The notes under the pieces: generated by a model
What the model was told of the DNA's origin: nothing
What the model saw: only the letters and a program-made list of their open reading frames with translations
Databases searched by the model: none
In this document: positions 2,551 to 54,294 of the stretch, in pieces
Layout of the letters: every line of letters starts with the position of its first letter
Numbering within the stretch: position 1 is the first letter of the stretch
Source of the DNA: Nemertoderma westbladi
Taxonomy: Eukaryota > Animalia > Xenacoelomorpha
DNA: 57,145 nucleotides
Direction of reading: 5' to 3'
NCBI GenBank assembly: GCA_032718475.1
Contig: JAUCBJ010002463.1
Span: 1 to 57,145 of the forward strand
Program-made: the position numbers and the translations under genes

Positions 2551-2722
2551 AAACTCAGTGAGGAAAGTCGGGCTATGTATCTAAAGCTGAGTTTAACAGA
2601 TGCAGCACATGATGTGGTATGTCAATTGGAAGACGCAAATAAACAGGATTATAATCTGATCAAGCGACGACTGATCGAGGCTTTTGCGGATACACCATAT
2701 GCAGCCTATGAAATATGGATAC
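2551..2722 (+). pseudogene. Gypsy-like gag remnant, 5' half (insertion target of element 1)
   Basis: Manual translation KLSEESRAMYLKLSLTDAAHDVVCQLEDANKQDYNLIKRRLIEAFADTPYAAYE resembles retrotransposon capsid helices; it continues after 23347. Confidence 0.65.
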
Positions 2723-4647
2723 TATAGAATTATATTCCCTAAATGCCGTGGATTTTCAAAATTTTATTTTATTCGGATTAACTTTGTAAAGATTGCTTTG
2801 AGTTCTCATTCGTATTGGTTCTATCATTTGTACATCTATCGGTCAAGTGGTTCAGTAGCTCAGTCGGTAGAGCGTTGGAAATTATATGTATAGTAGATAT
2901 TGAGTTCGAATCCTAGTGAGTGCGAATTATTTTTTGTACAGAATTTCAACTCATTTAAATTAACCGCTACAAATTAATTGCATTTGTCTGTACCAATGAG
3001 ACTGTAGTTATTTGATTGTAACCAATGTCGTGCAAGTTATATATTAGCTGGACCAATAGCTATCTTTAAAACCTTGTTAGAATCTATAGAACAATCGAGA
3101 ATTTTCTCGATTGATTGCGGCACAAATTTAGTATATAAAGGTGCGATTTCGTTCATTAGTACACTTACACAAACTTCTTATACAATCTATATCTTATATC
3201 TCAATCTTTCTCAGATTATCTTATCAATATTCTGTCGTGCTTAGTTTAATTCAGATTACATTGTATTATAATTATATCTTCTGTAATAAAGTCAGAATAT
3301 TCTCTCAGCTTTTCTATCTGTTTTATCATGGATTCACTACGGTGAACAAACTTAGGGACAGGATGGCCGGCTAGAGATCGGGCCGCAGCAATGAACGGGA
3401 ACATCACGGGAATGTAGACGAGAGACAACCCGCAATACCATCTAGAGTTATTCGCCCATCGCCTGAAAGGTTAGACAGCGTTCGATCCTTGCTACCTAAG
3501 TGTAAGACAAAAAGATCAAAGGGTAGACGTAGTGACACGCTGTAAGCCTAAAATTACATCATAGGGACTGTACTGTCTTGATTCAGGAAAAACCGCAGTA
3601 GACCTTCATATTCCTACGGGGGGAGGGAGAGAGAGCAGAGATACTAGTACGCAGATAGGACGTAGGCACACCGGTACAAGGCATACACATTGGTTAGGGT
3701 GCAGCAAACTGTACGCTTAACTCTTGCTAAGTACAGGTGCGTCTGTGACTATTTGCCGTGCAACAGTGTCCATTTGCATTAGAACTTGTAGGCTAGGGGG
3801 GTTGCTGTGTTTTCACCTGAATTGGGATTGTACCGTTCAGGCGGTAGGGCAGTTTACGTACTAGGCGCAAATAAATTGAGGCTATCAGAGATATACTAAC
3901 ATCTACCGTGTCCCCGCCAACGCCCTAATAGGAAGTTACCCGGACTACCTGGGTGACTAAAATTCTAGATAGGAGCCAGGATAGCTATTAGTACCCGTAC
4001 GCCTACAGTAGTAAACTAACACATCTCTTCTTAGTATCAGGGACCTGGTACCTAAAATTGCCGAATTCTGGGCGTAGTATTAACCTTATGCCTGAATTTG
4101 AGTCCTGGAAATACGCAAGAGGGGAAGGAACCTTATCATTCGTGAGTATTGGACCTACAAGTTACAAAATTAGAATATTCGTAAAATGCACACCGTACCC
4201 AGTAATTATATATGTGAAGGAGCAAAACTGCTTTGACCGTTCAGAATTAACACACGCGCATTAGAAATTATTTACACCTCAAAATATATAAAATTAACTT
4301 TCGTCCTTACTGCACTTTGCTCGCTAGTTAGACATCTCCAAATCTCTGCCTCTGTACCTAGCTAGCGTCCCTTTGCCCAACCATATAAATCACACCGCGG
4401 CAAAGTATACGAGCCTCTTAGTCCGTCAGTGAGTCAGCCTGATTTTAGGATTCGCTGCGCGGGATTTTGTTTTATCAAAGTTTGTCTGCTCGTAGACTGT
4501 TTTCTGCCTCACCGGTTATAAGAGATCGATACTGCAATATATTCGCTTACTTAGAGTTTACTGTTTTGGTGAGAAGGTCGGATTTATGATTTGATTCACA
4601 AACTTTACAGTAGGATATTGCAGGTATTGTTGCTGTCTCTTCAATTA
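2723..4647 (+). repeat. 5' LTR of element 1 (1925 bp, TATAG...AATTA)
   Basis: Direct repeat of 18693-18832 plus 21564-23347 with roughly six substitutions and one short indel by eye; TATA-like GTATATAAAG near 3131; AATAAA near 3285 and 3870. Confidence 0.95.
2850..2935 (+). promoter_or_regulatory. tRNA-like RNA polymerase III cassette inside the LTR
   Basis: A box TAGCTCAGTCGG 2856-2867, B box GAGTTCGAATCC 2902-2913, T6 run 2930-2935; no intact anticodon or acceptor stem. Confidence 0.75.
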
Positions 4648-4676
4648 GTAGGAATATGTTTTACTGAACTACGGTT
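4648..4676 (+). promoter_or_regulatory. Primer-binding-site position of element 1: not tRNA-like, complementary to LTR 3591-3617
   Basis: GTAGGAATATG (4648-4658) is the exact reverse complement of CATATTCCTAC (3607-3617); no TGG follows the LTR. Confidence 0.65.
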
Positions 4677-5463
4677 CGGTAGGACTAAAGTTATTTGAAA
4701 ATTTTGTATTTTGAGGTAAAAATTTATATTTGATTAGCTAAGTGCTAATTTTTTTTTTTTGAAATAAAATTTGATTTGAACCGCGTGTAAAATATTTTTG
4801 GAATTGAATACCGGTGTTTAAAAGGGTTTAAATACCATATTGTACCGGTACAAAATTTTTCGTAAAGTAAAACCTAACTCTTTTGTTTTTTCAGGATTCA
4901 GAACTCATTTCTAGACTGTAACGGGAGCAAGACCGTGTTTAGCAAGTTTGGGAGATAGATAACTCAACAACTTTGGTTGGGAAAATCGCGTTTCGTCCGC
5001 AACGCTAAAAACGGAAAGGTTCATGTCCGGTTTGTATCTGGGAATCTGTTTTTCTGGAGAATTATTGGAGTGGGTGAGTTCGAAAAGTTGCATAAATAAG
5101 TTAGGCATTACCGTATTAGTTAAAATTATTGTGGGTTCCACTGTCTCAAGTATTTATGCATTCCGTATGATTTCTTTGTTCATTGCTGAATTAGTTCGTA
5201 TTATTGTATTTAATTTACCTTTTGATAACGCATATCGTTATCCGATTTATTTGTTATAAAATTGGCCGCTAGGCTAATTTTATTATATACTTATTCCGTG
5301 ACATTTATTTGCTGTAAAATTGGCCGTTTAGGCTAATTTTATCCATCTGCTATAAAATCGGCCGGTAGGCTAATTTTATAAGACTGTAATTAGTACCGTT
5401 TAGATACTAATACGGTAAACTCGATACTTTGACACTCACTTTACTTGACTTACAACTACCGAA

Positions 5464-8400
5464 ATGAGTGACAAACAAGACTATACAAAGAATACACAAA
5501 CCGACTATGACTCATGCGACGGAGATAAGTCAGCAGCGGAAGAACAACAGGGGAAGACTCGCGAGCCTACCGAACCTACACCGTGTGCGTCACCAGTACA
5601 TCCAACGGGAGTACCGGATGCCGTAGTACGAGGCGACGGCAGGACCGAGGACTTTCTAACTGTTCCGCAACCTAGATATAGGGAATCGGACATGGTAAGT
5701 TCAGTAGGAAGTCAGGAAAGCGTTGTTAGGAGCGTCGGTGGTTACATGGCGCATATTACCAGGAGTATTGGAGAAGGTCATCGCATATTAGACGAGTTGA
5801 CCGCTCCGATGTCTCGATTCGAGTTCTACACCCTCCAGGTTAGAGTACAAAGTAGAGTACACAAGTCCGTAGATAACCTAATTGGTCTACAAGATCTAGC
5901 TAGACAGAGACAGGACATGGATACTCAACTTAGAATCCTCGAGAAACTAATGATCGCTAGAGAGAAACTGATTCAGTTTAAGTCGACGATTAGACAGATA
6001 CAACAGGAACAAGCGGACCAGTTGTTAGGTGAGTCAGTTTCGGACGAATTATTACAGCCCGAGGAAGAACAGGAATTGTACCGATTGGATGGACAATTGA
6101 AACATCTGACGGACCACTTACGTATGTGCGGCGAAGACGTCAGCGATTCGGAAACCGTGCCGGAATATACGAGAGAAACTTCACCCGTACGAATCAAATC
6201 GGCACCGGGAATACTGGACCAATCGTTAGTGAGTATTCGCAGCGAAATTGGCGAGATAAGTATAGTGACGTCAGAAATTTCCAGACAGCAACAACAGCAC
6301 GACAGACAACAACGAGAAGCGGAGGAACAAGCACAACTGTTGACGGCACAAGCAGCGATGCAAGAAGAGAAACTACGCGTTGCGAATGTTGCAAGAATCT
6401 CTCATCTGCAAGAACAAGCCGAGTTGGAAGCAGCTGAGATGGAAAGGTTGGAGCTAGAAATAGCACAGCGAACAGCGACAGCTGAGTTAGCGCAACAAGC
6501 GGCAGCAGCTGAGTTAGAACGACAAGCAGCAGCAGCGGAGTCGGAGCGACGAGCAGCAGCAGCGGAACTAGAGCGACGAGCAGCGGAGTTGGAAGAACAC
6601 AAGCGAGTTTCGGAAGCAAGAGCTGAAATGAAAAAACGGCAAATAAAGGCTCAATCAGCGATAAGACAAGCGGAGCTCGAGGCGCAACAACAACAGACGG
6701 AACAACGCGAGAAGGAAGTTAAACTTCATTTCGAACTCGGAAAGAAGGCGAGAGAATTAGCCAACGCGAAGGAAGATCTGGATCTACAAGCCCGCGATTG
6801 ATCGATGAGATCTCGAGATGGACACGATCTAGACCAGTTAGAGGTAAGGCACCGCCAAATCCAGGAACGAATGAAGGAAGGTTCGGTAGGGGCACCTGGA
6901 CGAGAAAGACAATTAGTTAAGGACTTATGTCAAAGATTCCCTCAGGTAACTCCTATGTTTGCACCGGTTACGACAAAGGAACCTGTTTCGATTGCTGGTA
7001 GTAGTGATATCTCTCCTATCCATGGTGTGACGGAACACAGGTTTGTTATTCCGGACAAGTTTACACCGCCAAGAGCAACGTCGTCGCCTATTCCGAAAGT
7101 CAAGGTAAGTAACCCGCCGATTACAGATCGTAGTAGTTTGTTGACTGGACCTGCACTACTGACGACTAAACAGGTGAGTCCACCGTCGACACCTAAACCT
7201 GTTACGCACTACGCTTACCCAATGACGTTTAGGCCAACAAGGCCAGTTGTTTCAAATGCTGTTATTCGCCCACCGGTTCAGTTTACATCGCAATCTACGA
7301 CTTCGAGGAAGACTTGTGAGCCTACCGAACAACGGAGACCAGTGGATACGCGACCGTTCAATCAGTTTGCATCGCAATCTACGACTTCGAGGAAGACTTG
7401 TGAGCCTACCGAACAACGGAGAACAGTGACGCGACCGTTCAACCAATTTACATCGCAATCTACGACTTCGAGGAAGACTTGTGAGCCTACCGAACAACGG
7501 AGACCAGTGGACGATGTTCCAAAGCGAAACGTTAGAATTCGAACGACGCAACGGACGCGAGCACGTCGACCACCATATCCAGATGATAGTAGTACTTCGA
7601 GCGAATCGGATTACCCGAAACGCGAGGTATTTAGAACAGGGGCGGCCGATGAATACAAACGCGAGCGTTCAGACAACTCCTTTGCAGACAATCCTCCACA
7701 GAATACACCAACACAGAAGGCGTTACAACCAACGGACGCAATTAGTACACAACAGTTCGCCGACATTCTGCGACCAGTTGTCAATAAGTTGGCTCAGATC
7801 GAGGAACGTCTGGAGGAAGGTTACACCGACAGTTCGAGAAATTCCGAATTCGAACACAATAGACACCCGAAGGAACCACAAACCTTCAAACCCCACATCG
7901 TATCAGGGAAAAGCGCCAAGAAGGGATATCAACAAGGTTACCAACCAAGGACGCGAAACTCTGAACGTTGCCGAGGAGATAGCGAAATTCGCAGCCAGAC
8001 AGGGATTGCCGGTACAACAACCACCGAAGTTTTCCGGTAGCTCAAAACACTGGCATACTTTCGTAGACTATATCGAATCCCAGATCGCCGTGTGCGCCTT
8101 TACATCACGGGAGAAGTTTAATTACCTGCTTCAAACGTTGTCAGGAGAACCTAAACGTTTGGCGGAGACTTTCGTCGGTGTACCGGACGCTTTCGAACTA
8201 GCGTACGATCGTTTAACTTCGATATACGGAGGTACAGTTAGTATGGCCAGGTCAGTAATAGAGGAACTCTGTAAGGGAGGGGCTATCACTAAACCCGTCG
8301 ACTTATTAAAACTAGCTGACGAGATCAAGAATGCTATCACTACCTTAAGATCCATTGGACAACTTGATTACGGGAATACCCCTACAGTCCTATTAAAGAT

Positions 8401-10095
8401 CATAGGACGACTCCACCATCGACTTCGTCGGGAGTGGAGGAAGGTCGAATACCAGCGAGAAGAGCGGGGAGGATTCTTAAAATTAGAAGATGTGTACCTT
8501 TTAATATCCAGGGAGGCAGTAGTAGAAACTAGATCTAACTACACCGACCAGCACATCGTGGCAGAAGGAATCACATTGCCATCCTCCAACCGACAAAAAC
8601 CCCAGACAACATCCACTAAGACGGCCACTTACGCCACACCGACGGAATCACGACAATTCTCGGACGGTAGTAGGGTATCTGCGCCCATTGGGACCAAACA
8701 AACAGACAACAACTCGGTACCGACTTCAGCGGCTGCCAATACTGCGAGCATTTAGGCAAGCGGTATATCGGTCACAAGTTGAGGGGTTGTCGACAATTTA
8801 GCGAGTTGAACTCAGAAGAACGACGGCTGCAAATACGGCCATTGGACTCTTGTTGGCGGTGTACGCGACACGGACACGTCCGTAAAGATTGCCCAAATAC
8901 CGACACTTGTCCATCCTGTGGACGCAACCATGACGGTCTGCTCCACACAGACAGCCACACGCCGACGAAACGCTTCGCCAGGGAACACCCGGAAGCAGCA
9001 GCGAGATGTGATGCGGCCTACCGAAAACGAGAATCGAAAACAACTCCAACCTTCGTGACCCATATTGAGGATTGCTTCTCAGAACAATCCGGATCGTCGG
9101 ACGAAGAGTTAGAAGACGACGACGAATATTCCAATGGAGACGAACAACCGTCGATCGCGCTTCTGACTACTGACCAACTGAAGGGATTCAGTGTAATTCC
9201 GATTAAGGTTACTGGCACAAAGGGGAGTAAAAGAATCTACGCTATTCTAGATTCAGCCTCATCTCATAGCTACGTGGATGAAAAGATAGCTGACGTAGTG
9301 ACGGATCTTAAACAAGGTAAGCGCGTCAGTTATACCGTAAGTAGTATGCACGGACAGCGTGCAATACCAGTGACACGAGTTAAGTTGGACTTAGACTCTC
9401 TTCTTCCAAAATCGCAGCACAGCGTGAGGGAGAGGTCTTTGTTGCCCTTTAAAGATCTAACCTTTGCGGCTACGAAGGACTTTAGTAACCTACTAGGTCC
9501 AGTGCCGGAACAATCTCTAGAGGACCGTAAGTATTTCAGACACCTTGGTGTACCTGAATGTCCTGTCAATTATAGATCGGTAGCAATGCTGATCGGGACA
9601 GACCAATTCAACCTACATCAGGTGTGGGAAACCAGACCATCGGCAGTTGTAGCGGGAAACGCATACGCCTGCAGAACGCCGATAGGGTGGTATACTCGAG
9701 CGCCTGTGCGCACACTAGACGTAAGTGACGAGGAAGACGATGTACAGAGTACATGTAGTTTATTAACTACAAATTCAATTCATTCCTTTTCACACGACGT
9801 GAACCATACTACACTACAGTCGACAAAACATGACAGACGTGTAACTAGTATGATAAGTCACAAGGAGCAGCTAACCCACCAGCGGAGTTTAGAACTTGGG
9901 GAGAAGACGAGTCAGCTAGAGATTCCATCGACGACAGATGATAGGCTTGCGAGTCTACCTACCCCAACAACTTCAACAATGCCCGTCGAGATCGACGATG
10001 ACGCGTTGAGAAATCATCAGTTGGAACAAGCTGTACTAGACAAAGAATTAACGGAGAAGACTATCAGGTGGTTAGAACAAGATACAGCTGAACCT
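5464..10095 (+). pseudogene. gag: BEL/Pao gag-protease region (one in-frame TGA and two compensating frameshifts)
   Basis: Coiled-coil N-terminus; BEL capsid-like PPKFSGSSKHWHTF...EKFNYLLQTLSGEP (in the 7481 frame); CCHC cluster CQYC...H...C, CWRC...H...C, CPSC...H...LH; aspartic protease ILDSAS; TGA at 6799-6801. Confidence 0.92.
7279..7512 (+). repeat. Three tandem ~81-84-bp in-frame repeats in gag
   Basis: QFTSQSTTSRKTCEPTEQRR(P)V repeated three times in DNA and protein. Confidence 0.95.
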
Positions 10096-11311
10096 GGTAC
10101 CTAAAGAGGTGAGGTCTCTATAGGGGTGCCAGGAACAGGCGGCGGCGGACTCGTGAGGGTCTGGGGACACGTTAAATTGCTGTATAAGTGCAAGGGAGAT
10201 ACTGAAGGCCCTCGTGTCTAATGAACCATGAATCGACATGGTGCCGTGGTACCGTCTAGTCGGCCTGTTGCCGTACTGCCAGTCCTGTACACAGTAGGGG
10301 TGGTGGCATGGCGTGATTTGTGGCTCATGTGGCGTGAACTATGTTTTGTATGTGGGCGATCAGTGGCAGTTTGCTTGGGGCTTGGATGGTTCCATTGACC
10401 GTCAGCTGTTCCGTTTTTTTGATACTATATGTTATTGTCTCCATGTTCAGCTGATTGGTCTTTGGTGGCATTGGAATAAACCGTCGGGTCTTGAGCTTTC
10501 TGTTGCTGTGGGTACGTGAGTACACGTGATTGTATGTGTGGCCACTGCGAGTGGGTATGGGAACCCTTGCCAGTTGGACAAGACGCCGCTGGTATTAGTA
10601 GGACCATACTTTACTGCACCCCAGCATACTTTGTGCACACAAAGTTATTTTACCCTGTCGGTAAAATAAGGTACTCTCGACTCTTTTGTCGTGATTCAGT
10701 CGATACAATTTTGTCCCCTCTGATTTTGTCTTTCCCGATTTTGACCCCGATTTTGTCTTACCCGAATATGTCCTCTGTGTGTGCATGGTATGTGTCAGAT
10801 TTTGTGATTACCGTAGTGTACTTGATTTCGTGAACATCTGTTGAGTACACGTGTACAGGACGGGTAAGTGGTTACTTGTTCCTAGCTTTCGAGCTAGTCA
10901 GTATTGTTGAGGAACGGTGTCCCCTCAATACTGCCGGCGAGGCAGGTGAAAACGTGTCAATATTCCATGTTGGGTAGCGCAAGCCCGCTTGGGACAAGAC
11001 CGTCGGTTAGGCCCAAGGGCGACCTTGGTGCTCGATCGCTATCGACTGGTCCACCTGCCGGTTGACTCTTTGTTATACTTTGAGTTGGCTCAATGTACAG
11101 TCAGGCCACAGTAAGTTGACAGTAGCCGCCCATCTGGCTACACGTTCGACGAGCTGTGCCGGTGTGATCGGGGGACCGAAAACAGAACCCGGGAAGCATC
11201 GGGCCACCCTGCGGCCTGGTTTGGTTTGTCACCGGCCCCCAGGGTGGTGGAAAGGTGTCCGCCTCGTGGGTGCGCCTCGGGGAGGAGCCCAGAAGGACAC
11301 AAGTGAGCTAC
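10096..11311 (+). mobile_element. Unclassified 1216-bp structured insertion in pol with a 6-bp duplication GAACCT
   Basis: GAACCT at 10090-10095 and 11312-11317; removing the insert restores WLEQDTAEPCMSEQEKQSLKIMEDT in frame; no TIR, poly(A) tail or TG..CA ends. Confidence 0.88.
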
Positions 11312-14300
11312 GAACCTTGTATGTCGGAACAGGAGAAACAATCTCTGAAGATCATGGAAGATACTATCCGCCAGACGAAAGACGGACATTATGAGGTGGG
11401 GATGTTATGGCGTAGCCAAAGTCCTAAACTTATAAACAACTACCCACTGGCTTTAAGACGTCTACACTCAATACGGCAACGTCTATTAAAGGACGAGAAA
11501 GCCCATCTGCAGTACAACACTCAGATGGAGACGTATTTGACTAAAGGATACGCTATCCGAATGACTAACCCGGAGATAGTGACTGACCAAACATATTACT
11601 TGCCACATCACTATGTGAGACACCCCGACAAACCAGATAAAGTACGCGTAGTCAATGACTGTGCGGCTCTGTTTGAGGGAATGTCCCTCAATAGTGAGTT
11701 GATGGATGGACCAAACATGAATAATTATCTTATGGGGGTGATTATGCGCTTCCGTCAGCGTCAAGTAGCTTTTACTTGTGACGTTGAAGCGATGTTTCAC
11801 CAAGTGAGAGCGTTAGAGCGAGACAAAGACAGTTTGCGGTTCCTCTGGTACCCGGAAGGAGACTTAAGTCTACCACCGGCGACTTACCAAATGCAAGTTC
11901 GCGTTTTCGGTGCCAGAGACAGCCCAAATTGTACGATGTACGCCCTAAAGCAGGCCGCTAGGGATCAGAAACATCTATATGACCCAGAGATAATTAAAAT
12001 CGTAGAACGTGACTTTTACGTCGATGACGGTTTACAGAGTTGCGACACAGTAGAACGTGCTACAACAGTAGCACATCAATTACGGGACTGCTTAGCGGGC
12101 GGAGGTTTTAACCTCACCAAATTCGCCTCAAACAGTGCCGAATTAGTAGACTCGTTCGGAACTACTGAGCGTGGAGGTGGTGACATAGACCTAGAGTTCG
12201 AACCACTACCGACGACTAAGGTGTTAGGGCTCTTTTGGGACCCAAACACAGACAACTTTCGAGTGAAAGTGAGACTGGACAGTCAAGAGAACACACTGAC
12301 AAAGAGATCATGCTTGTCAAAGTTGAGCCGATTGTTCGATCCGTTAGGATTCATCAGTCCAGTGATACTGCAAGCCCGCATTTATATGCGCAGTATATGG
12401 AAGGATGGACTAACATGGGACGAGCCGATCTCATCAGACCAAGTGGACTTATGGAAGACCTGGGAGGCGGAATTATCTTCGCTAGAGGATTATTCCATAC
12501 CCAGGGTTTACTTTCCATTACAAAGTACATTTCCTGACAACTTGGAACTACACTGTTTTTCTGACGCCAGTGACAACGGTTTTGGTGTGGCAGCGTACTT
12601 GCGTAGACAAGTAGACTCAGACGAGTTCGATGTTTCGCTCATTACTTCTAAGGCTAAGACCATGCCTACCAAGTATATGACGACACCACGAGCTGAGCTA
12701 CAAGCCGCAACCCTGTCAACCACCATCGTGAACCTCATACAGACAGAACTACAGTCGAGTTTACAGATATTTTATTGGACTGACGCGACGTTGGTTTTAT
12801 TTTACATAAACAACGACACACTCGAATTCAAGACATTCGTAGCTAACCGTCGCGCGGAAATTCTAGATCGTTCAATAAAAGAGGATTGGCGACATTGTCC
12901 CGGACCACAAAACCCAGCTGATATTGCGTCGCGAGGAATGATGCCTGAGGAATTCTGTAAACCGGAGAACAAAGAATTTTGGCAACACGGACCCCAATTC
13001 TTGCAGAAATCGACACAAGATTGGCCTCCGTTATACGACAACAAATCTAATACTATCCCTAAGGACGCCGAAATCAAGAAACCAAAAAAGGGGAAGACAA
13101 AGAAAAGGACGACGGCGGCAAAACTCAAGAAAAAACCGAAGGCGAAATGGAAAGATATAACTTCAAAGGTCAAGAGAGGAAGACTTGCGAGCCTTTCTAC
13201 ACCAGACATATCGCCAGACGGTCAACCAGACATATCGCCAGACGGTCAGCCAGACACATTACTAGACAGTCGACTAGACATTTTGTCAGAAACATCACAA
13301 AATGTTCTACCGGACATTAGTAATGTATTGACAAACAGTAAAGCCGCAGTTTCCCTATTGGAGCGGCCTTCTATTGACAAACAACCAGATACGTTACCAG
13401 ACGTATCGCCAGACACACTACTAGACAGTCGACCAGACACTAGTAACGTACTGACAAATAGTGAAGCCGCAGTTTCCCTATTGGAGCGGCCTTGTATTGA
13501 CAAACTACCAATTTTGACACACTTGAGCAACCATAAGCACGGTGAAACCTCATGTATTACAGATGTGGGTAGTACCTACGCTAATGTAAATACAGGTGTT
13601 ACTTTGCGCTCAAGAGACATACCGAACTTGCAACCTATGGTGAGACCTGGGATTAATGTCGGCAGGAAAATAAGTTTACCGAAACCTGCTGACCCCATAG
13701 AGTTCAAACCACCATTAACGATCGACTTACAAAGTACTGACGATCAAGGTAAGAAGACAAAGAAGGACAAATTACTTGTAGACCCGGACGGATCAACAGT
13801 CAACAAGGGAATACTTACCGGCGGACCCGTGGGCCCTTCTAGTAATTCAAAACCTTCCAAATTCTCAATTGACTTACCTGATGACGTCACAAATACTCAT
13901 GTCGACCGTATTGTAAACTTAACAGATTCTTGGTCAAACGCTTGCCGAAAATTAGCGTGGATTGTACGTTTTGTACAATACGTTAAAGGCAAACGCGACT
14001 TTACACGTCGACTTACATTGGCTGAGATTGACAGGTGTGAAATTATATTAATTCGCCATTATCAACTGCGATATTTCGCGCGCGAATTCACATCCATAAA
14101 TCAAGGTCAACCAATCAAGTCGTCACCAATACTGAGTTGGAGTCCGATAATTTATAATGGCTTAATTTGTCATAAATCTCGGCTTCAAAACATTGACTTT
14201 AACACAAACTTTAGGTACCCAATAATAATACCGCAACACCACGAACTACAACGTGCAATGATACTGGACGCACATTTACATCTGAAACACGCTGGAAGAC

Positions 14301-15409
14301 ACCACTGTCTTTCCTACTTACGTACTAGATTTGTATTAATTAGACCCAGTAAAGCATTAAGTTCAGTGACACGTACGTGTATTATTTGTAAAAAGGTACA
14401 TTCTAGAATAGGTACCCAAGAAATGAGTGAACTACCACAAGCACGACTTCAAGCATTCAGACCACCTTTTACAGAGACTGGAATTGATTGCTTTGGTCCC
14501 ATACATACGAAACGTGGACGCATACTAGTAAAACGCTGGGGACTGATTTTCACATGTATGTCCAGTAGGGCAGTTCACATTGAACGTGTGATGGATCTTT
14601 CCACCAACGCGTTTATACTAGCACTGCGGCGATTTATCGCTAGACGCGGACTAGTGAAATGCTTGTACTCAGACCAAGGGACAAACTTTGTTGGTGCTCG
14701 GAATGAGATTGCTAGAGCCTTTAAGAAATTAGACCATGATCAAATCTCGAACGAACTGCAACCTCACAAGATTGTTTGGAAGTTTAATCCTCCAGATAGT
14801 CCTTGGAGAGGCGGAGTCTGGGAGAGACTGATTAGATCTATAAAGACAGCCATGGCAAAGGTCATTCCAGTAAACCACATATTGACAGACGACCAACTGA
14901 CAACATTGTTTGTTGAAATCGAGGCAATACTAAATACTAGACCAATAGTATTAGTACCCGATGACAAACAATCTCAATTTGCTTTAACACCGGCACACCT
15001 GCTAATGCAGGCACCGACCACATTAATGCCGATTTCTATTCCAATAGAAAGCGACAGCTACGGTAGAAAAGCGTGGAAAATCACGCAACTACTGGCTAAC
15101 AAATTCTGGGAAATATGGCAAAACCATTATTTGCCCTCTATTTCTGCCAGAACAAACTGGTACAATAACACCCGCGCATTAAAGCCGGGAGATCACGTGC
15201 TGTTAGCGGAAGTGAATCTAAAAAGACGCTTCTGGATAACAGGTGTAATTTTAGCCACACATCCATCTATGGATGGAGTGACAAGGACTGTGACAGTACG
15301 GACAATTGACGGTCGTACAGTAGACAGACCGACTCAACGTCTCGTACTTGTTGAAGAGACTCGTAACGAGTCTGGAGACTACAAATCTCCACCTAATACT
15401 AGTAAATAA
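11312..15409 (+). CDS. pol: BEL/Pao pol: reverse transcriptase, RNase H, integrase (open frame, separated from gag-PR by the insertion)
   Basis: YYLPHH, KVRVVNDC, DVEAMFHQV, FYVDD (RT); FSDAS, PRAELQAA, WTDA, NPADIASRG (RNase H); HHCC, GIDCFGP, SDQGTNF, GVWERL (integrase). Confidence 0.96.
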   Translation, partial: EPCMSEQEKQSLKIMEDTIRQTKDGHYEVGMLWRSQSPKLINNYPLALRRLHSIRQRLLKDEKAHLQYNTQMETYLTKGYAIRMTNPEIVTDQTYYLPHHYVRHPDKPDKVRVVNDCAALFEGMSLNSELMDGPNMNNYLMGVIMRFRQRQVAFTCDVEAMFHQVRALERDKDSLRFLWYPEGDLSLPPATYQMQVRVFGARDSPNCTMYALKQAARDQKHLYDPEIIKIVERDFYVDDGLQSCDTVERATTVAHQLRDCLAGGGFNLTKFASNSAELVDSFGTTERGGGDIDLEFEPLPTTKVLGLFWDPNTDNFRVKVRLDSQENTLTKRSCLSKLSRLFDPLGFISPVILQARIYMRSIWKDGLTWDEPISSDQVDLWKTWEAELSSLEDYSIPRVYFPLQSTFPDNLELHCFSDASDNGFGVAAYLRRQVDSDEFDVSLITSKAKTMPTKYMTTPRAELQAATLSTTIVNLIQTELQSSLQIFYWTDATLVLFYINNDTLEFKTFVANRRAEILDRSIKEDWRHCPGPQNPADIASRGMMPEEFCKPENKEFWQHGPQFLQKSTQDWPPLYDNKSNTIPKDAEIKKPKKGKTKKRTTAAKLKKKPKAKWKDITSKVKRGRLASLSTPDISPDGQPDISPDGQPDTLLDSRLDILSETSQNVLPDISNVLTNSKAAVSLLERPSIDKQPDTLPDVSPDTLLDSRPDTSNVLTNSEAAVSLLERPCIDKLPILTHLSNHKHGETSCITDVGSTYANVNTGVTLRSRDIPNLQPMVRPGINVGRKISLPKPADPIEFKPPLTIDLQSTDDQGKKTKKDKLLVDPDGSTVNKGILTGGPVGPSSNSKPSKFSIDLPDDVTNTHVDRIVNLTDSWSNACRKLAWIVRFVQYVKGKRDFTRRLTLAEIDRCEIILIRHYQLRYFAREFTSINQGQPIKSSPILSWSPIIYNGLICHKSRLQNIDFNTNFRYPIIIPQHHELQRAMILDAHLHLKHAGRHHCLSYLRTRFVLIRPSKALSSVTRTCIICKKVHSRIGTQEMSELPQARLQAFRPPFTETGIDCFGPIHTKRGRILVKRWGLIFTCMSSRAVHIERVMDLSTNAFILALRRFIARRGLVKCLYSDQGTNFVGARNEIARAFKKLDHDQISNELQPHKIVWKFNPPDSPWRGGVWERLIRSIKTAMAKVIPVNHILTDDQLTTLFVEIEAILNTRPIVLVPDDKQSQFALTPAHLLMQAPTTLMPISIPIESDSYGRKAWKITQLLANKFWEIWQNHYLPSISARTNWYNNTRALKPGDHVLLAEVNLKRRFWITGVILATHPSMDGVTRTVTVRTIDGRTVDRPTQRLVLVEETRNESGDYKSPPNTSK

Positions 15410-16066: not shown

Positions 16067-17769
16067 ATGGAGAAAGGGATACAAGGAGAGTCGAGATGGG
16101 GATATGATATCCAAGAGGAGGCAGCAGCGCCATTCGAAAGATTTGGAGCCAAGGACTACACTATATTTGGTATAAAGGAATTATCAGAAAGTACAGCGAA
16201 GCTCGCAAAGACAGTAATGCCTTTAATCGAGCAGGATTTAGCATATTTCGAGACGTGTATCTTCGCTGTGCGGGATCTCTTATCGAAAGACCATCTATGT
16301 TTACATTGTTACCCTATGAAGGAGAACGTATCGTGGAGATTACGGAAGAATCACGGCAGACGCGCGCGCCTATCGGTCACCTTGGTGATGAATTCGAAGT
16401 AACTACTACGATCGCCGACGATCCTTTAGAGGAACTTCTTGAGATAGAAAGGAACCTCCCGAAGAAATCTCAGACGGAGATTCGACAACTTGAAGCAACG
16501 GATGCTATAGTTTGTATACAACCTTCAGAAACCTACCAACCCATAGACCCAGATGATTACGATTATAGTATGGGAGGAAGCGCTCGACCGATTGGAGATC
16601 TTATATACGAACGAGTGTGGTACCCTGCCAATACGATGTGTAGTAAATGTGGCGTCGCTGGACATCATATGGCAAAGTGCAGTGGAAAGCACATTACTAC
16701 GACTCAGCTAATCTGTGGATGGTGTGGGGATCAAGGGTCTCATACCTTTTATACTTGCTGGAGATTTATGGCTCAGTGTACTTATTGCAATATAAAGGGA
16801 CATCGAGCATCTGAATGCCAACTAAGGGACATACCTTATGAACACGAATCTGTAAAACTCGTGAGGAAGTTATTTGATGAGTGGGAAGATTTAGCCGACG
16901 AACATGTATCGGCACAGAGAAGACGGTTTCCGATGAGAGCGCATCTCGGATTTTGGGCGGTAAATCCTCAAACGATGATGTCGGAAGGATATATCTCCGC
17001 TATGCCCCAATATGACGAACTTATCGAGGTTGTCGATATTTTGCCCCACGACAGCGGATTCCGAGTGGTGCGCGAGTATCTACTACAGATTCACCCGGAT
17101 AACAAAAACACGTGGAATTTTCAGAAAGTCGTTAATCGGATTACGTATGGTGAATTCGATCGTTTCCGAACTGAAAAGCGGAACAAAGGAGCTTGGTTAA
17201 CCGTCGCATGGGCGTACCGAGCCGCGTTTTACCATAAACGTATACGAGCGAGCGTATTCGAGGAAGAGGAGGTCCTAGAGGCGACAAATATACCAGCCAC
17301 TCCGGTTGCGCCGTCTGCACGTCACCCTCGGGAGGACGGACAGGGTAGGATCATACGGGTCCAGAAAGTGGGCCAACAATTAAAGAAAATTATTAATGTA
17401 GAAGAACGCAAGGGAGTTGAGCCGACTATTCGAGTTACTCGGGATACGGTATCACTTCCAAGAGAACCAGTAGGAGGATCGGGACATACACCAGCTGATC
17501 AACAGGGGGCGCAAGCTACTCTTGGGTCTGCGTCGTCCACTTCTCGCGCGTTCCCAGACGTTCTACCAACTGTAGTGACGACTGATCGGTCACGAGGAAT
17601 CGGTCGAGGTTTTGGGATGCCAAATAGACGAATTTGCGAGGAAATAGTCGCACCGTCTCTCAACGTCCCAAGTAAACCAGTGACTCGCCCCATTAGTCCC
17701 ATATCGCGAGCAAAGTCACCTGTGCGAAGTTTTCGAGGACGCGGCAGGGCTCGATCCACTAAGCGATAA
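16067..17769 (+). CDS. Accessory 3' ORF of element 1: three CCHC zinc knuckles plus uncharacterised domain (probably one frameshifted ORF)
   Basis: CSKCGVAGHHMAKC, CGWCGDQGSHTFYTC, CTYCNIKGHRASEC followed by LFDEWEDLADEH...RRRF...LGFW; lies between the integrase stop and the 3' LTR; ORFs 16067-16402 and 16255-17769 overlap. Confidence 0.8.
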
Positions 17770-18480: not shown

Positions 18481-18692
18481 TTAGATTTATATTGTACTTA
18501 CTTAGTAAAGCCTTAAATACGTAAAGTTTGAATTTGTAATTATTTTTGTATCGAATCATTACGTAGAAAGGAAGTATTGTTTGAAATTTAATTGTAAATA
18601 TGTAAGTACGCCCTAAGTATTCTATAGTTTGATTGATTATTGGTGAAAACCGTATATTTTATGCACGATAATATCCTGTTTTCATGGAGCGG

Positions 18693-18832
18693 TATAGAAT
18701 TATATTCCCTAAATGCCGTGGATTTTCAAAATTTTATTTTATTCGGATTAACTTTGTAAAGATTGCTTTGAGTTCTCATTCGTATTGGTTCTATCATTTG
18801 TACATCTATCGGTCAAGTGGTTCAGTAGCTCA
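18693..18832 (+). repeat. 3' LTR of element 1, first part
   Basis: Matches 2723-2862; preceded by the short purine-rich GGAGCGG (putative PPT). Confidence 0.93.
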
Positions 18833-19335
18833 GGCAGAATACCTAAGGACTGTGGTAAATCTAAGGTTGAGAGTAGGCTGGAGAGCTAAGGTCGCGAGTA
18901 GCGTGGAGGTGAGGAAGGGAGTAGCTTGCTTAGGTGGATGGTAGGAAAAACCCGGCTTTCTATTGGCTGTTATAAATAGCTTACATAGTTTAAACTATAT
19001 AGTAGTTCCCCTGGTTGAGGAGATGGGAAATCATGTACTGGGATAGGCTGCTAAGTTAACCCAACAAAACAACTAAACTTTTAATTAATTATTGATTACA
19101 GGCAAGGATTTGGAAGGAATTTTTTAATTTCATCAAAGGTTTACGTTTAATTAAACGAGTATCAGTTAATCGTGTTATATTGACAAATAAATTATCATAT
19201 TACAAATATATTATCTAGTTTTCTATACTTATGAGTAAATAATAAACTTTCTATAATATGTCATGACTTCAAATGCATCCACGAATACCGTGTTTTGTTT
19301 GATAAGGGAATTAGCAAAGGAGACCTGCCATTTAG

Positions 19336-19366
<31 letters not shown>

Positions 19367-20156
19367 TCATTTTTGGGGGTTTTAGAGCATGTAGTCGTAG
19401 GCCTAGGTTTTTGTACTACATGGTGTTGATCGTGTGGGTGGACCACCGAACAGTTGCGAATTTTAGACTAAAATAGACAATTGTTTAAAATTTATTGTTT
19501 ATTTGGTAATCCGATACTCACATTGCACATATAGAGTAAGATATACAAATACAGTATTGTATAATTGCAATATTAAAAGTTAAGTTACAATAATACTTTG
19601 GACAATGGTGTGGCTAGTATTATAGCCCAATGTATTGTCTGGGAGTGCCGGGCAGGTAGGTATGTAGTGTAGGTAGGTAGGTAGGTAGGTGTGCAGTGCT
19701 TGCAAAAAAAAGGGGGGGGGGGATATTACTATTATGTGAATTGTGAGGTGTGAGATTGTTACTGTTGTTGTTGATAGGGAAATAATTAATTATCCTAAGT
19801 TAATCTCCAGCGCAATCAATTGTTTCACTGGAGTTCCGATGCTGGATCCAGGTATATAAAACTAAACTAATGAGTCGAGTTAGGAAATACATAAAATATA
19901 AAGTATTGGATGGAAAAGGTTATGGAAAATTGGTAAAATCTATGTTTTATTGATTGTTTACAGTGTACTTTAATTTAATATTTTAGAAGGTGACCTATTT
20001 CGAAAAGGGTACTATATTTTTGATTTTTTATGTTTTACGTCAGCAAAGGAATCAGAGTTCCATATCGTTGGCCCTGAAAAATAATTATTAGTGTTTGGAA
20101 ATTATTGGAAAACTAATGTATCTTTGAGATGAGCAATGCGCATATCCTTGCCTTAA

Positions 20157-20867
20157 GGGGGGGGTACACCATTTTGGTCCAAAATATGTCGAAATTTTTT
20201 TTATGGTCTATTATAATGCACCATTGAATGGTGTTTCCAAATCTGAAAACCGCTATTTAATAGCTCTTTCAGTTTTCAAGTTATGTAAATTTCCATTTAC
20301 GGAATCCTATTGAAATTACTATTACTATGTATAATGAAAGGTCGATTATCTCCAAATATTTTTTTCATGAAATTGTCAACTTCAAAACCCTACTACTTCT
20401 ACAATTTTTGAGTAATTAGTCTGAAACTTCCTGTGGGTGTCTAGATAGTCACCCTGCATAAAAGTATCAGGCAACTTTTCGAAATTTTTTGTTAATAAAA
20501 TTTAATACTATTTATAAAAAACCTAAAAATTTGCATAAATTTGCAGCGCCACCTAGCGGTGCAGAATTATTTTAACAAAATTTCGCCTGATAGTTATGTT
20601 GCCCCATCTTTGATCTATCATATAAAAAAACTTTCATGTGATTAGGTTCAAAACTGTAAAAGCCTTAGGGTTTTAAGCGCAACCAAGTTTTTATTGTTGT
20701 TAACTAGTATTAACTAATATTAAATAGCGAAAAAAAAAAATTTTCTGACCTGTCATGTAGAATAGCATCTTAGGCACCTATATGCCAAATTTTAGCCAAA
20801 ATCAAACAATTTTGAAACGCTGAGAGTGATAAATCGAAGAGTTGTCCGAAAATGGTGTACCCCCCCC
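20157..20867. mobile_element. TTAA-flanked MITE (Kolobok-like, purine termini)
   Basis: TTAA|GGGGGGGGTACACCATTTTGG ... CCGAAAATGGTGTACCCCCCCC|TTAA. Confidence 0.85.
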
Positions 20868-20871
20868 TTAA

Positions 20872-21252
20872 GGCCTGTTTACGCGTGGCAACTTTTAGAG
20901 CAACTTTCTCGGCAACTTTTAGAGCAAACCAGGTTGCCGATCAAGTTGCTCCGTGTAAACACGTAAGTTGCTGAAAAAAAATGCCGTAAAATTTGCTCAA
21001 CTTTTACGGCAACTTGAAGGAATTTGCGTTGGGGAATTAAAGCGGGATAATCAGATGTAATTATCAAAAACTAGCTAGTAGATAAAATGACCCACTATTT
21101 TACAGTTAAACTCGCCAAGTTGCTCTAAAAGTTGCCGGCCAAGTTGCTGGTAAAGTTGCCACGTGTAAACAGCGATTAAATTAAGTTGCTCCAAAAAAAG
21201 TTGCTAGTTTGCCGAGAAAGTTGATCTGAAAGTTTCCACGTGTAAACAGACC
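20872..21252. mobile_element. Harbinger-like MITE
   Basis: GGCCTGTTTACGCGTGGCAACTTT ... AAAGTTTCCACGTGTAAACAGACC inverted termini; internal AAGTTGC and GTGTAAACA repeats; TSD imperfect. Confidence 0.75.
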
Positions 21253-21563
21253 TTTAGGGGTCGAATAGCCTACGTTGATAGTTAGACGTAAAGGATAATA
21301 TATTATTTGTTGAATAAGTTAAATTTGTATAAGTTACTGTATAATGTACAATGCTCTATATGTATATTACATGTTCTCATACTGTATAATATTAATATTG
21401 ATGTTTCAATATTTACAAAGTATAATAATTCTAATAAAAATATGTATGGTAGAAAAATACATTATTGCGTTTTTCCTTTCTCTCTGCGTTTTTCCTCCCT
21501 CTCTGGTCATTTTTCCGCGTAATTCTTTTCCCCCCTTGTTTACAGTCTGTTTTGCCCCAGCCC

Positions 21564-23347
21564 TAGCTCAGTCGGTAGAGCGTTGGAAATTATATGTGTA
21601 GTAGATATTGAGTTCGAATCCTAGTGAGTGCGAATTATTTTTTGTACAGAATTTCAACTCATTTAAATTAACCGCTACAAATTAATTGCATTTGTCTGTA
21701 CCAATGAGACTGTAGTTATTTGATTGTAACCAATGTCGTGCAAGTTATATATTAGCTGGACCAATAGCTATCTTTAAAACCTTGTTAGAATCTATAGAAC
21801 AATCGAGAATTTTCTCGATTGATTGCGGCACAAATTTAGTATATAAAGGTGCGATTTCGTTCATTAGTACACTTACACCAACTTCTTATACAATCTATAT
21901 CTTATATCTCAATCTTTCTCAGATTATCTTATCAATATTCTGTCGTGCTTAGTTTAATTCAGATTACATTGTATTATAATTATATCTTCTGTAATAAAGT
22001 CAGAATATTCTCTCAGCTTTTCTATCTGTTTTATCATGGATTCACTACGGTGAACAAACTTAGGGACAGGATGGCCGGCTAGAGATCGGGCCGCAGCAAT
22101 GAACGGGAACATCACGGGAATGTAGACGAGAGACAACCCGCAATACCATCTAGAGTTATTCGCCCATCGCCTGAAAGGTAGTCGATCCTTGCTACCTAAG
22201 TGTAAGACAAAAAGATCAAAGGGTAGACGTAGTGACACGCTGTAAGCCTAAAATTACATCATAGGGACTGTACTGTCTTGATTCAGGAAAAACCGCAGTA
22301 GACCTTCATATTCCTACGGGGGGAGGGAGAGAGAGCAGAGATACTAGTACGCAGATAGGACGTAGGCACACCGGTACAAGGCATACACATTGGTTAGGGT
22401 GCAGCAAACTGTACGCTTAACTCTTGCTAAGTACAGGTGCGTCTGTGACTATTTGCCGTGCAACAGTGTCCATTTGCATTAGAACTTGTAGGCTAGGGGG
22501 GTTGCTGTGTTTTCACCTGAATTGGGATTGTACCGTTCAGGCGGAAGGGCAGTTTACGTACTAGGCGCAAATAAATTGAGGCTATCAGGGATATACTAAC
22601 ATCTACCGTGTCCCCGCCAACGCCCTAATAGGAAGTTACCCGGACTACCTGGGTGACTAAAATTCTAGATAGGAGCCAGGATAGCTATTAGTACCCGTAC
22701 GCCTACAGTAGTAAACTAACACATCTCTTCTTAGTATCAGGGACCTGGTACCTAAAATTGCCGAATTCTGGGCGTAGTATTAACCTTATGCCTGAATTTG
22801 AGTCCTGGAAATACGCAAGAGGGGAAGGAACCTTATCATTCGTGAGTATTGGACCTACAAGTTACAAAATTAGAATATTCGTAAAATGCACACCGTACCC
22901 AGTAATTATATATGTGAAGGAGCAAAACTGCTTTGACCGTTCAGAATTAACACACGCGCGTTAGAAATTATTTACACCTCAAAATATATAAAATTAACTT
23001 TCGTCCTTACTGCACTTTGCTCGCTAGTTAGACATCTCCAAATCTCTGCCTCTGTACCTAGCTAGCGTCCCTTTGCCCAACCATATAAATCACACCGCGG
23101 CAAAGTATACGAGCCTCTTAGTCCGTCAGTGAGTCAGCCTGATTTTAGGATTCGCTGCGCGGGATTTTGTTTTATCGAAGTTTGTCTGCTCGTAGACTGT
23201 TTTCTGCCTCACCGGTTATAAGAGATCGATACTGCAATATATTCGCTTACTTAGAGTTTACTGTTTTGGTGAGAAGGTCGGATTTATGATTTGATTCACA
23301 AACTTTACAGTAGGATATTGCAGGTATTGTTGCTGTCTCTTCAATTA
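21564..23347 (+). repeat. 3' LTR of element 1, second part
   Basis: Resumes at TAGCTCAGTCGG, matches 2856-4647 and is followed by the TSD GATAC. Confidence 0.95.
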
Positions 23348-23450
23348 GATACATATGCGGATACATATTTGGCTGATCTACGCCGACTGTTATCGCGAGT
23401 GCTACAGGACCATTTCAGGGAGGTGCACGAACAGCGGCTGGTCGGGACCT
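23348..23450 (+). pseudogene. Gypsy-like gag remnant, 3' half
   Basis: ADTYLADLRRLLSRV resembles the major-homology-region motif expected after ...TPYAAYE of the 2551-2722 fragment. Confidence 0.6.
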
Positions 23451-23460
23451 ACGGGACGCC

Positions 23461-25840
23461 GTCGCTGGACAATGCGATCTTCGAGCATTTCCACTACGTG
23501 GTGAAAGGAGATGAGGCGAAGTTCGGGATTCCGTATAAATCCCGTACGCGAGAGAGTCACCGAGGAAAGATTGGAAGAGGTTCATAGAGTCCGTCAGCAG
23601 GGGAGGGTACATGATCCTAGACGACGAAGGAACCGTGGAAGACGAGGAGGGTTCGAAGAGAGGGTCGGCGGGATCGGCCAGAACCATACTCCTACATTTG
23701 GCCGCGCCAAATGGGGATATTTTCCTATTTGACCTGGGAACATATGGGAAGAAGGACGGCCCGAAGTTAAACCGGTTGCCGAAGGCAGTGCAAGTCCTAG
23801 TAAGAGAGAAGTCGACAACGAAAGTGGGATCGGCGATTCGCGATGATGTGGAGAGAATCATCGGTCCGGACACCCCAACCTCCTGGATATGCAGACGGTC
23901 TTCATGGCTATGACAGCACCAGACGGGTTGGGACTAGTCGAGAACACAGACCATTGCGGAGCGGTGGCGATGGGCCAGCTATTGGGGCTCGTGTGTCACA
24001 AACCAATGGACTGGGGGAAGTTCAGAGAAGAGTACAGAGCAGAATTAGCGAACTCGCTGAAGTGGGGAGCGAGGCCGGGGAAACAAGAGGTGTATCAATT
24101 CCGGAGAGGAGCAATAAAGGTATATCAGAAGCGATATATCCTGCAGGAGGACTGGATAATGATAGGTTTGCTTAACCTATTCATGACCGTGGTTATTGAG
24201 AGGGAACCAACGGCATTCCTATTATCGGGATCACCCCTAAGCTACAGAAGAGCCTTTAAGACGGCTTTCGTGGGTCTGGTAGACCACCCGGGGCTGAAGG
24301 GCGAGTCGGTGTACTACAACAGCCGACATCTGGTAGACGGGGAGATAGATACGCCGTATCAGAGGTGGGAGGAGCTAGAGACGGATAGACGAGAGGCGAA
24401 GCAACTGGATGATGTCGCTAGACAGGAGAGGAGAGAAGCAGAGGTAAGGGAGGAGGAAGCTAGGACACAGAGCTACGGCTTCGAGGAACAGGCGGGCTTA
24501 GACGAACTTCGTTGGACTTCATCAGGGAGTTCGGGGGAGTCTCTAGGGCGAGAACTGGGATGGACGGTGGGCTCACCGAAACAGTCGACGTCGGGATTGC
24601 AGACGACGCCCATACCAGCGGGCGCCGAGGGCGACCGGCCGCTAAGGAGGCTAGGGGAAAGGATGGGCTAAGGATGGAAAGCTACGGGCGAGAGCCAAGG
24701 CGGGAAGGGACATAGTGGGTCCACCGGGATACCGGGGCTGGAGCCACTCCCAGAGGAGGACGAGGACGACGACGAGTTCGGAGAGATGCCGCCCATCGGG
24801 AGGATCAGCCACTCGGACACGGACTGGGTTGGCGGGAGGGTGGTGACGGCCAGTGGGGCGAGGGCCTTCTGGGATAGACCCGGCAAGCGGGCCTGGGTGC
24901 ACGAGGAGCCGGCGATGGATTTCGCGGGGAGCACTATCAGGTTGGGCGAGCAACCGGGGACGGCACCACGGGTAGTATTCGGGGAGACGATGCCCGGGAG
25001 GGGCGAGGAGATCGATGTAGACAGGGACACTAAAGTCCGGAAGTTCGCTTACCAACGACTCCACAGACCGCGGAGATCGCTTGGGACGAAAGACGACGTG
25101 GGGCGGGAGACATTGGTGCTCGGCTGTGACTACTGTGGGAGACAGACCCATCAGGAAAGGAGCTGCTGGTACCGGTTCCAGAAAGGGACTAGTTGTCTCT
25201 ACTGCCGCGAGTCGAGCCACAGGATGGGGGCGTGTCCACGGTTGCATAACCGATGTTTGAAGTGTAACTTTCGGGGACATTACGGATGCCAGTGTGACTG
25301 CATGGATGACGAAGAGAAGTTTAGGATCTTCGAGGAGTGGGCCGACGTCGGGGCGATGACTCGGCAACGTATGAAGGCCCAGGAGTTCCGGTGGGGCTTC
25401 TTTAACATCAATCAGGAGGCTCACATGGAAATTATCAAACGGAGGCTTCCGTTTACTTACCAGGAAGTGGCGACGGCGGCATCATATGCCGGAGTGATAA
25501 ATACACAGAGGTATTTGGATAGGTGGACGCCACAGAACAGAGGAGAGTTTAGGGATTTCTTGGCGGAGCATGTGCCGCGGGCAATGAAGTTGATCCTATG
25601 GGACGCCACCAGGGGGAGACAGCAGGGCCACTCGGAGGGGCCACCCGCGAAGCGATACCGGGAGCTAATAACACCGGCACCCAAGGAGTCGACGACCGGG
25701 ATCAGTAAAGAGGTGGTGGCGAGAGTCCGAAGCCAGAGCACAAGACCAGAGGAGCGGCAGTGACCAGGAAACGACCTAGGGAAGAGGACGACAGGGGGAA
25801 AGACTTGAGGTGGTTCCCAAAGGCAGGTGGAACGAACTAA
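23461..25840 (+). pseudogene. Frameshifted accessory ORF: DEDDy-type 3'-5' exonuclease-like domain plus three CCHC knuckles
   Basis: YMILDDEG, LLHLAAPNGDIFLFDL, KVGSAIRDD, KWGARP...QKRYILQED; CDYC..H..C, CLYC..H..C, CLKC..H..C; split across ORFs 23611, 23889 and 24786. Confidence 0.8.
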
Positions 25841-26530
25841 GACTTCAGTGTAACATGCCTAGAAGGCACCACGCGAGACGTGCGAACTCCTAAGTACAAA
25901 TTCAAGTAATTTAAATAATTGAAAAAGTGCAATTAGTAGGTACGTACGTAGTAATCATTATTAGTTTAGCAAAATATAATCGAAGTAAGTACTGTAGTCA
26001 TTCAACCTTTTTCCAATTAGCTACTGGACTGGGGGACGACTGACTATGACGAACGAGACGCTGGACGACATCACACATCTTGAGTGCGATGGCACAGGAG
26101 GGGGGTGAAACTCGTCGGGAGTGAGTGGGAGAGAAAGGGGTTGAGTTGTGGTGCTGAGAGAGTGCAGGTGCAATTCAAGTGTGGGGGGGGGGGGGGGGGG
26201 GAGGAATAAGAGGCAGAGTGAGGGACAGGGAAGTCCGAAAGTTAGAGCGGAAGTGAGGAGAAGTAGAGGAGAGTCAGGGTGAGAACAGAGCAGAGTTAGT
26301 GGTGAAAGTGTTGGGGAAACAAAAGTCGTGTGAGAGGAGCGCACGATCGGCCCGACACGGGATGCCAGGTAAACAGGGTAGCGATATCATACCCATAGGG
26401 GGCGGTCTGGAAAGCCGGCTCCGAAAAAATAGTTCCACCCCACACTCGACACTAGGTCGTGATCCAGCGGAATTGTAGCGCACTAGAGGTGGATGCTATC
26501 TTCTTACCGGGAAGATAGCATGGGGGGGAG

Positions 26531-28756: not shown

Positions 28757-29005
28757 TTAGTCGGTTAGCTAGGGTAGAGCGGAGACTTCTAAGACCGTCC
28801 TCGCCTACCACCATTATTTGTACATACTGTAGTACTTCAATTGCCATCTATCCATTTATACTATATCCATCTTAACATTTATATTATACATACATCGGAG
28901 AACTAATAACATCAGAACTCTCGAACTCTTTTCACATACAAACGGCGGGGACGCGTACTTGCAATAACCGCGGATAAACCGGGATCCTCCTTGTATCCCG
29001 TCACA
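28757..29005 (+). repeat. Partial 5' LTR of element 3
   Basis: TTAGTCGGTTAGCTAGGGTAG...ATCCCGTCACA is nearly identical to 33345-33585. Confidence 0.9.
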
Positions 29006-29058
29006 GTCATAGAACACCAACTACTACCCTAGTATTAGAACTTCCAGCTAGCTACGAT

Positions 29059-54226: not shown

Positions 54227-54294
54227 TTGACATTCAAATCCTGGATTGTAGCATTCCCTGTATAGTCCTTCACGTATTGCGCGTGGATTTATAT

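Follow-up and report, generated by a model that had tools for sequence, protein, structure and literature searches.

How minus-strand DNA synthesis is primed in element 1, a long terminal repeat (LTR) retrotransposon of Nemertoderma westbladi, and whether a tRNA takes part in it, is the question raised by this locus. Replication of BEL/Pao elements is poorly understood and is described as tRNA-primed (PMC8742986). The window, that is, the whole stretch of DNA that was analysed, is 57,145 nt long.

Element 1 and the limits of its LTR

Self-BLAST paired the two LTRs of element 1 (Table 1) in two segments, a left one with 100% identity (2723-2863 and 18693-18833) and a larger one of 1793 nt with 99.2% identity (2856-4648 and 21564-23348), and contigs from two public runs, X4 and X5, have loose ends at 2723, the left edge of the LTR. 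Because GATAC stands at both flanks, A4647 is fixed as the last base of the LTR, directly followed by G4648. LTRs generally end in TG...CA; here TA is found in place of these termini (2723-2727 and 4643-4647), alongside a clean 5-bp target duplication. The purine tract ahead of the 3' LTR is weak (18686-18692).

Between the LTRs, protease, RT, RNase H and integrase follow each other in the BEL/Pao order. The start of gag is at 5464, and gag is scattered over several frames. Pfam matches were obtained for DUF1759 (E-value 3.5e-12), Peptidase_A17 (1.7e-42) and DUF5641 (2e-20), while the Integrase_H2C2 match in the pol ORF is below the curated cut-off; a protease motif in ORF 8674-10104 and the RT and RNase H motifs in the pol ORF were read by eye. 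About 1.2 kb between the protease region and RT (10105-11300) is without the expected coding frame. The protein search gave 1534 homologs, the best of them 39-44% identical and mostly unnamed, and PF05380 was present in all 120 homologs listed among the 1534; no PDB relative was found. For the extra ORF after pol, every Atlas lead scores under 0.9. Judged by its domain content, element 1 is of BEL/Pao type. The gag-pol of this copy is interrupted, and the family has a high copy number and young insertions.

Several other features were observed in the window. At about 2850-2935, the LTR contains a degenerate tRNA-like motif with a T run and with look-alikes of an A-box and a B-box; the motif was called by neither ARAGORN nor Rfam. 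The 2.7-kb insertion that splits the 3' LTR (18834-21563) contains two MITE-like units (20139-20885 and 20864-21260), and its 8-nt duplication, TAGCTCAG, falls right within the A-box-like motif; no terminal inverted repeat of the insertion was found among the 25 longest listed. It is possibly a tRNA-gene-targeting element. The stretch 3075-3348 resembles a solo LTR captured from another family: it is bounded by TG...CA, holds a TATA box and AATAAA, and its 5-nt flanks nearly match. Among the joints listed in the contig comparison of 2650-5450, none skips it. More nested pieces of LTR elements with related ends lie at 23461-33592 and 51000-57145, one of them on the minus strand with DUF1759 and protease matches.

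Table 1. Coordinates of element 1 and of its putative priming signals in the window.
Feature	Position	Strand	Remarks
Left target-site duplication GATAC	2718..2722	.	Right copy at 23348-23352
5' LTR	2723..4647	+	1925 nt, TA...TA termini; from self-BLAST and target duplication
TATA-like box (3132) and AATAAA (3285)	3132..3290	+	Upstream promoter and poly(A) signal as candidates, from motifs alone
GT..AG intron	3470..4894	+	1425 nt; joint in X4; holds primer and primer-binding site
Outer pairing arm	3591..3600	+	Pairs with 4662-4676; AACCG part not conserved
Candidate self-primer CATATTCCTAC	3607..3617	+	T3609C variant in family; YYANWYY initiator-like motif at 3606-3612
Purine run and possible inner helix arm	3618..3649	+	3626-3649 can pair with 4619-4642; weakly supported
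Candidate primer-binding site GTAGGAATATG	4648..4658	+	Flush with LTR end; A4656G variant pairs with 3609
Gag-protease region	5449..10104	+	Four frames; DUF1759 within ORF 7430-8755
RT - RNase H - integrase ORF	11168..15409	+	1413 aa; YVDD; Peptidase_A17, Integrase_H2C2, DUF5641
Extra ORF after pol	16108..17769	+	553 aa; zinc-knuckle-like motifs; no family assigned
3' LTR	18693..23347	+	Split by 2.7-kb insertion at 18834-21563

The match at the primer position

The initial annotation had stated that the first 11 nt after the LTR are the perfect reverse complement of 3607-3617, and this exact match was confirmed. It begins at the first base past the LTR end, where priming starts, and it ends at 11 nt, with no 12th pair. 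In the whole window, the complement of GTAGGAATATG occurs only in this LTR segment and in its copy in the 3' LTR (22307-22317). When the LTR was dinucleotide-shuffled 5000 times, 15 shuffles gave matches of at least 11 nt at any of four offsets, and 13 of 13,900 interior positions taken as mock primer sites reached this length, so that the rarity of the match is 0.001-0.003 overall. A survey that distinguishes three primer classes calls a self-primer from at least 10 nt of complementarity starting 0-5 nt after the LTR (PMC6317226, available part); element 1 has 11 nt at offset 0.

The lack of a tRNA primer-binding site, also noted before, is consistent with the complete absence of TGG from 4621-4677, and the G/purine run noted after the 3' end of the primer is seen at 3618-3635. 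ARAGORN found 0 tRNA genes, and Rfam gave no tRNA family in 2600-5600 but two weak matches, neither of them meaningful. An encoded primer in the tRNA-like motif at about 2850-2930 was rejected: 3607-3617 is the only part of the LTR with a complement to 7 or more of the site's initial letters. None of the GT/GC..AG junctions within the LTR builds a complement of the primer site of at least 10 nt. Element 4 of the window, previously described as tRNA-primed, served as a control and fits that description: it ends in CA, the next letters being TGGTCCTTCGAATC (minus strand, 38193-38180), and a search of 1307 nt upstream for a self-complement found none as short as 5 nt. Likewise, the repeat end at 29005 has no self-complement of at least 6 nt in 28600-29005.

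Variation, folding and transcripts of the LTR

Copies of the family were sampled through the contigs of public runs, 6 of the 11 listed runs containing the stretch. Four runs (X1, X3, X4 and X5) were compared over 2650-5450 and three (X1, X3 and X4) over 3540-4760, with variants counted from 8% of the summed contig depth; the shares are therefore short-contig depth and not allele counts. X5 (organism B) has zero cover at 3496-3683 and 4624-4811 and is uninformative on the helix. In the 1221 nt of 3540-4760, 21 sites vary at this threshold, and 3609 and 4656 are the only ones inside the two 11-mers. T3609C accounts for 23% in X1, 27% in X3 and 100% in X4 (a single covering contig), and A4656G for 31%, 29% and 31%, respectively. 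Position 3609 pairs with 4656, and T3609C together with A4656G changes U-A to C-G. If 21 sites were placed at random in 1221 nt, any partner pair would be hit with a probability of 0.003, and the partner of 3609 with a probability of 0.016. Covariation between the site and the LTR segment had been suggested as a check in the initial annotation, and the outcome is favourable: the sole common variants of the 11-mers are pairing partners that restore Watson-Crick pairing, on short contigs that do not link them.

This covariation concerns a single pair, and the short contigs do not join T3609C and A4656G on one molecule. In X4, the shares of 3609C and 4656G disagree (100% vs. 31%, one contig each), and 3609 may be covered there mostly by 3' or solo LTRs. 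Since A4656G alone retains a U-G pair, part of the signal may reflect tolerance and not compensation; in the DNA runs, 4656G has a slightly larger share than 3609C, as might be expected with a U-G intermediate. The pairing had also been extended outward through CAGTA/TACTG and AACCG/CGGTT, both of which are present in this copy, but AACCG/CGGTT is not conserved in the family. A3592C (17% in X1 and 20% in X3) and G3595A (13% and 24%) break this helix, no partner change reaches 8%, and both variants are found on the same X4 contig as 3609C. CAGTA/TACTG is invariant across the runs and thus uninformative.

Two further kinds of variant were seen near the LTR end. At low depth in X1 and X3, the last 62 nt of the LTR are replaced by 26 other letters, and the sequence rejoins at 4647, just before the site, an arrangement that counts in favour of self-priming. 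Loose ends at 4636-4656 in X1, X3 and X4 show the LTR end, together with the initial 9 nt of the site, tandemly repeated in some copies, which might be a product of faulty second strand transfer. Searching metagenome contigs with a 20-nt junction pattern gave 2 matches, both unrelated by BLAST, and viral contigs, searched with the RT protein and then with a 25-sequence alignment (24 of the 120 listed homologs plus the query), yielded no locus.

The core helix, taken as a duplex of two strands, has a predicted energy of -13.7 kcal/mol, or about -38 to -40 kcal/mol with the possible inner helix, which is absent from the initial annotation. The inner duplex itself (3626-3649/4619-4642) is predicted at -25.6 kcal/mol, with a pair probability of 0.02 or less in global folds; it contains zero paired variants, and its 3' arm is swapped out in one low-depth variant. 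It was rejected as a distinctive feature, for the junction window reached -34.1 kcal/mol with 3603 and -32.7 kcal/mol with an unrelated site in the interior; among 60 random windows, on a coarser grid, the best value was -30.8 kcal/mol. The core helix has a pair probability of about 0.9 in the fold of 3607-4760 and is unsupported in the folds of 3155-4760 and 3607-4900. With 21 choices of start and end, it was part of the minimum-energy fold in 8, whose starts all lie at 3560-3608, and it was never part of the best fold with starts at 3155 or 3440, nor with the end at 4800. The predicted folds thus lean slightly, and in a fragile manner, towards an RNA start near the primer.

The intron has an AAG/GTTAGA donor and a pyrimidine-rich CAG/G acceptor. 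Its joint is carried by one X4 contig, with 25 nt on the short side, and is absent from X1, X3 and X5. It implies a start upstream of about 3445, and thus upstream of the primer, for at least one transcript; the spliced form is without primer and site and retains the gag start at 5464. The 8-nt deletion in the 3' LTR of this copy (vs. 3472-3481) strikes the splice donor. We judged X4 to be an RNA-like run, though none of the listed runs is recorded as RNA, because of the GT..AG joint, A>G changes at 114 of 171 changed places and an adapter-like loose end. The latter, presumably a template-switch oligo, is on one X4 contig before 4586 and could mark another RNA start. One X4 contig at 3799-4504 has 91 differences, the listed changes being A>G and mostly missing from the DNA runs, and looks like a hyper-edited sense RNA of the LTR.

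The presence of 3607-3617 in the transcript, on which the initial annotation had made its proposal depend, agrees with unspliced X4 contigs that cross the primer (3550-3739 and 3429-3797), X4 being RNA-like only and either LTR being a possible source. No RNA 5' or 3' end at 3607 or 3617 was found among the loose ends listed, and contigs cannot show RNA ends. For the same reason, drops in the X4/X1 depth ratio near 3307, near 3490 and after 4647, which would fit the poly(A) signal at 3285 and the splice donor, were dismissed: contig depth can show neither ends nor levels of RNA. A second AATAAA is found at 3870. The initiator-like YYANWYY at 3606 is one of 19 in the LTR scan, and no TATA box is found near 3607. 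A sigma-70 scan, which is not applicable to the host, found nothing.

Priming of element 1 compared with known systems

Element 1 probably primes minus-strand synthesis with the LTR 11-mer of its own RNA, freed by a cut after 3617. We prefer this reading because the sole complement to the priming position is in the LTR itself, and it varies with the site; the earlier proposal of tRNA-independent priming in a BEL lineage is therefore supported by the 11-nt match and by the matched variants at one pair. In any LTR element, the primer position sets the right end of the LTR, and the new site is a copy of the primer made in plus-strand synthesis. In element 1, unspliced RNA would fold 3607-3617 onto 4648-4658. 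It would then be cut, presumably by the RNase H of the element as in Tf1, at the junction of C3617 with the G run, which would leave a 3'-OH from which RT would copy about 1030 nt (from 4647 to 3618). The strong-stop DNA would jump to the matching part of the 3' LTR, for which the packaged RNA must run past the primer copy at 22317. The 3' LTR counterpart of the AATAAA at 3285 must then be read through, which counts against the model. Plus-strand synthesis would copy the primer into the new site, so that any mutation of the primer would pass to the site by this step alone. The spliced RNA would be message only.

Whether the genomic RNA would start at 3607/3608, with the primer as its 5' end as in Tf1, or upstream, with the primer internal, is about evenly balanced: the former is favoured by the exact 11-nt primer, the initiator-like motif and the lost outer pairing, and the latter by the upstream promoter candidate and the splice. 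As a tentative possibility, a BEL/Pao lineage may have come off tRNA priming in a particular form, in which the primer is cut from the interior of a long LTR leader, at a distance of several hundred bases from the cap, and a single intron with both primer and site sorts genome (unspliced) from message (spliced).

The matched variants would be accounted for equally well if the primer were the 3' end of the genomic RNA (at 22317) or of a separate short LTR transcript (at 3617) that anneals with no cut of the leader. The 11-mer is present in both LTRs, and the spliced RNA starts upstream of 3445, so that the 11-mer is not its 5' end. Such priming is unlikely, because an exact non-polyadenylated 3' end would be required where no terminator is known, and X4 contigs cross 3617 (3550-3739); we know of no precedent for it among LTR elements. 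Covariation in itself indicates selection or copying, not priming, and the pairing may be a conserved structural stem (for packaging, dimer formation or a splicing switch) in an element primed by a host RNA or by another route. Both strands lie in one intron, which makes splicing control possible, and a further helix (3626-3649/4619-4642) can form. A stem of this kind is improbable as the whole explanation, as the helix stops exactly at the LTR boundary, the sole place where a primer can sit, and the search gave no other primer candidate.

A host tRNA 5' half that primes at 4648, as in copia-type half-tRNA priming, is a very unlikely source of the primer. The half-tRNA route is an established third class (PMC6317226, available part), BEL/Pao elements use tRNA-Arg or tRNA-Gly (PMC8742986), and in our reading the complement ends with 7 nt that can be taken as an anticodon loop with CCU (Arg). 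But the exact complement inside the LTR and the matched variant would be left unexplained, a fixed host primer should, when copied, keep resetting 4656, and in the available part of the plant survey, use of half-tRNAs is limited to Ty1/copia lineages (PMC6317226). Finally, match and matched variants might be coincidental and the primer site degenerate: among very many elements, matches at P about 0.002 will occur, and the covariation is a single pair. Against this, two largely separate tests gave 0.001-0.003 and 0.003-0.016, and, in a family with many copies and young insertions, just one of the 11 site positions reaches the 8% threshold, which makes coincidence highly improbable.

Self-priming has so far been documented for the Tf1 group (Ty3/gypsy) and predicted in one plant copia lineage. 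If element 1 does prime itself, a third superfamily would be added and the switch to self-priming would be a repeated evolutionary event. It would also test whether LTR reverse transcriptases have a latent capacity to cut an RNA-RNA helix by their RNase H, and would draw attention to elements immune to blocking of the primer site by tRNA fragments. Annotation tools demanding a tRNA site and TG...CA ends would miss such elements. Young, high-copy insertions and a natural variant pair make the family directly testable. No published self-priming of BEL/Pao elements was found in a search that left out most subscription papers as well as Repbase and GyDB, so that its absence from print is not established. 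Cer7 of Caenorhabditis elegans, an element of the BEL group, has been proposed to encode its own tRNA-like primer; the primer segment of element 1, in contrast, has no tRNA form (ARAGORN, 0 genes; Rfam, no tRNA family in 2600-5600).

Element 1 resembles canonical BEL/Pao elements (Belpaoviridae, and element 4 in the window) in DUF1759, Peptidase_A17, DUF5641, the RT-RNase H-integrase order and the 5-bp duplication. The ICTV profile gives an 18-nt site for tRNA-Arg or tRNA-Gly, LTRs of 0.2-1.2 kb and genomes of 4.2-10 kb (PMC8742986), whereas element 1 is without the 18-nt tRNA site and has a 1.9-kb LTR, TA...TA ends and an extra ORF. In the main text of a BEL/Pao survey, as far as available, the words 'primer', 'PBS' and 'tRNA' do not occur (PMC3118150). 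The literature considered also includes PMC4600332, PMC3601003, PMC13524379, PMC5443660, PMC5445492 and PMC2864245.

Tf1 and Tf2 of Schizosaccharomyces pombe and Tj1 of S. japonicus are like element 1 in having no tRNA site and 11 post-LTR nt complementary to an LTR segment. Tf1 and the sushi group are Ty3/gypsy chromoviruses, whereas element 1 has BEL/Pao proteins, so it is not a member of the group but would work alike. For the accessory stem that accompanies the primer helix in this group, the duplex 3626-3649/4619-4642 would be at most a weakly supported candidate in element 1. In Tf1, RNase H cuts off the first 11 bases as primer (PMC7175516, available part); compared with this RNA 5' end, the primer of element 1 is a putative 5' end or internal, with a loop of about 1030 nt within the 1.9-kb LTR. 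Tf2 makes a translation-only RNA without primer through a downstream start (PMC5341516, available part), whereas the primer-less RNA of element 1 arises by splicing. The same sequence criterion applies to the TAR lineage of plant Ty1/copia (Houba, Osr-1) and to the Tcn1 chromoviruses, which belong to other superfamilies and hosts; self-priming has been predicted for 89% of 203 TAR and 83% of 1500 Tcn1 elements (PMC6317226, available part). TAR and Tcn1 show that the switch to self-priming has happened independently before.
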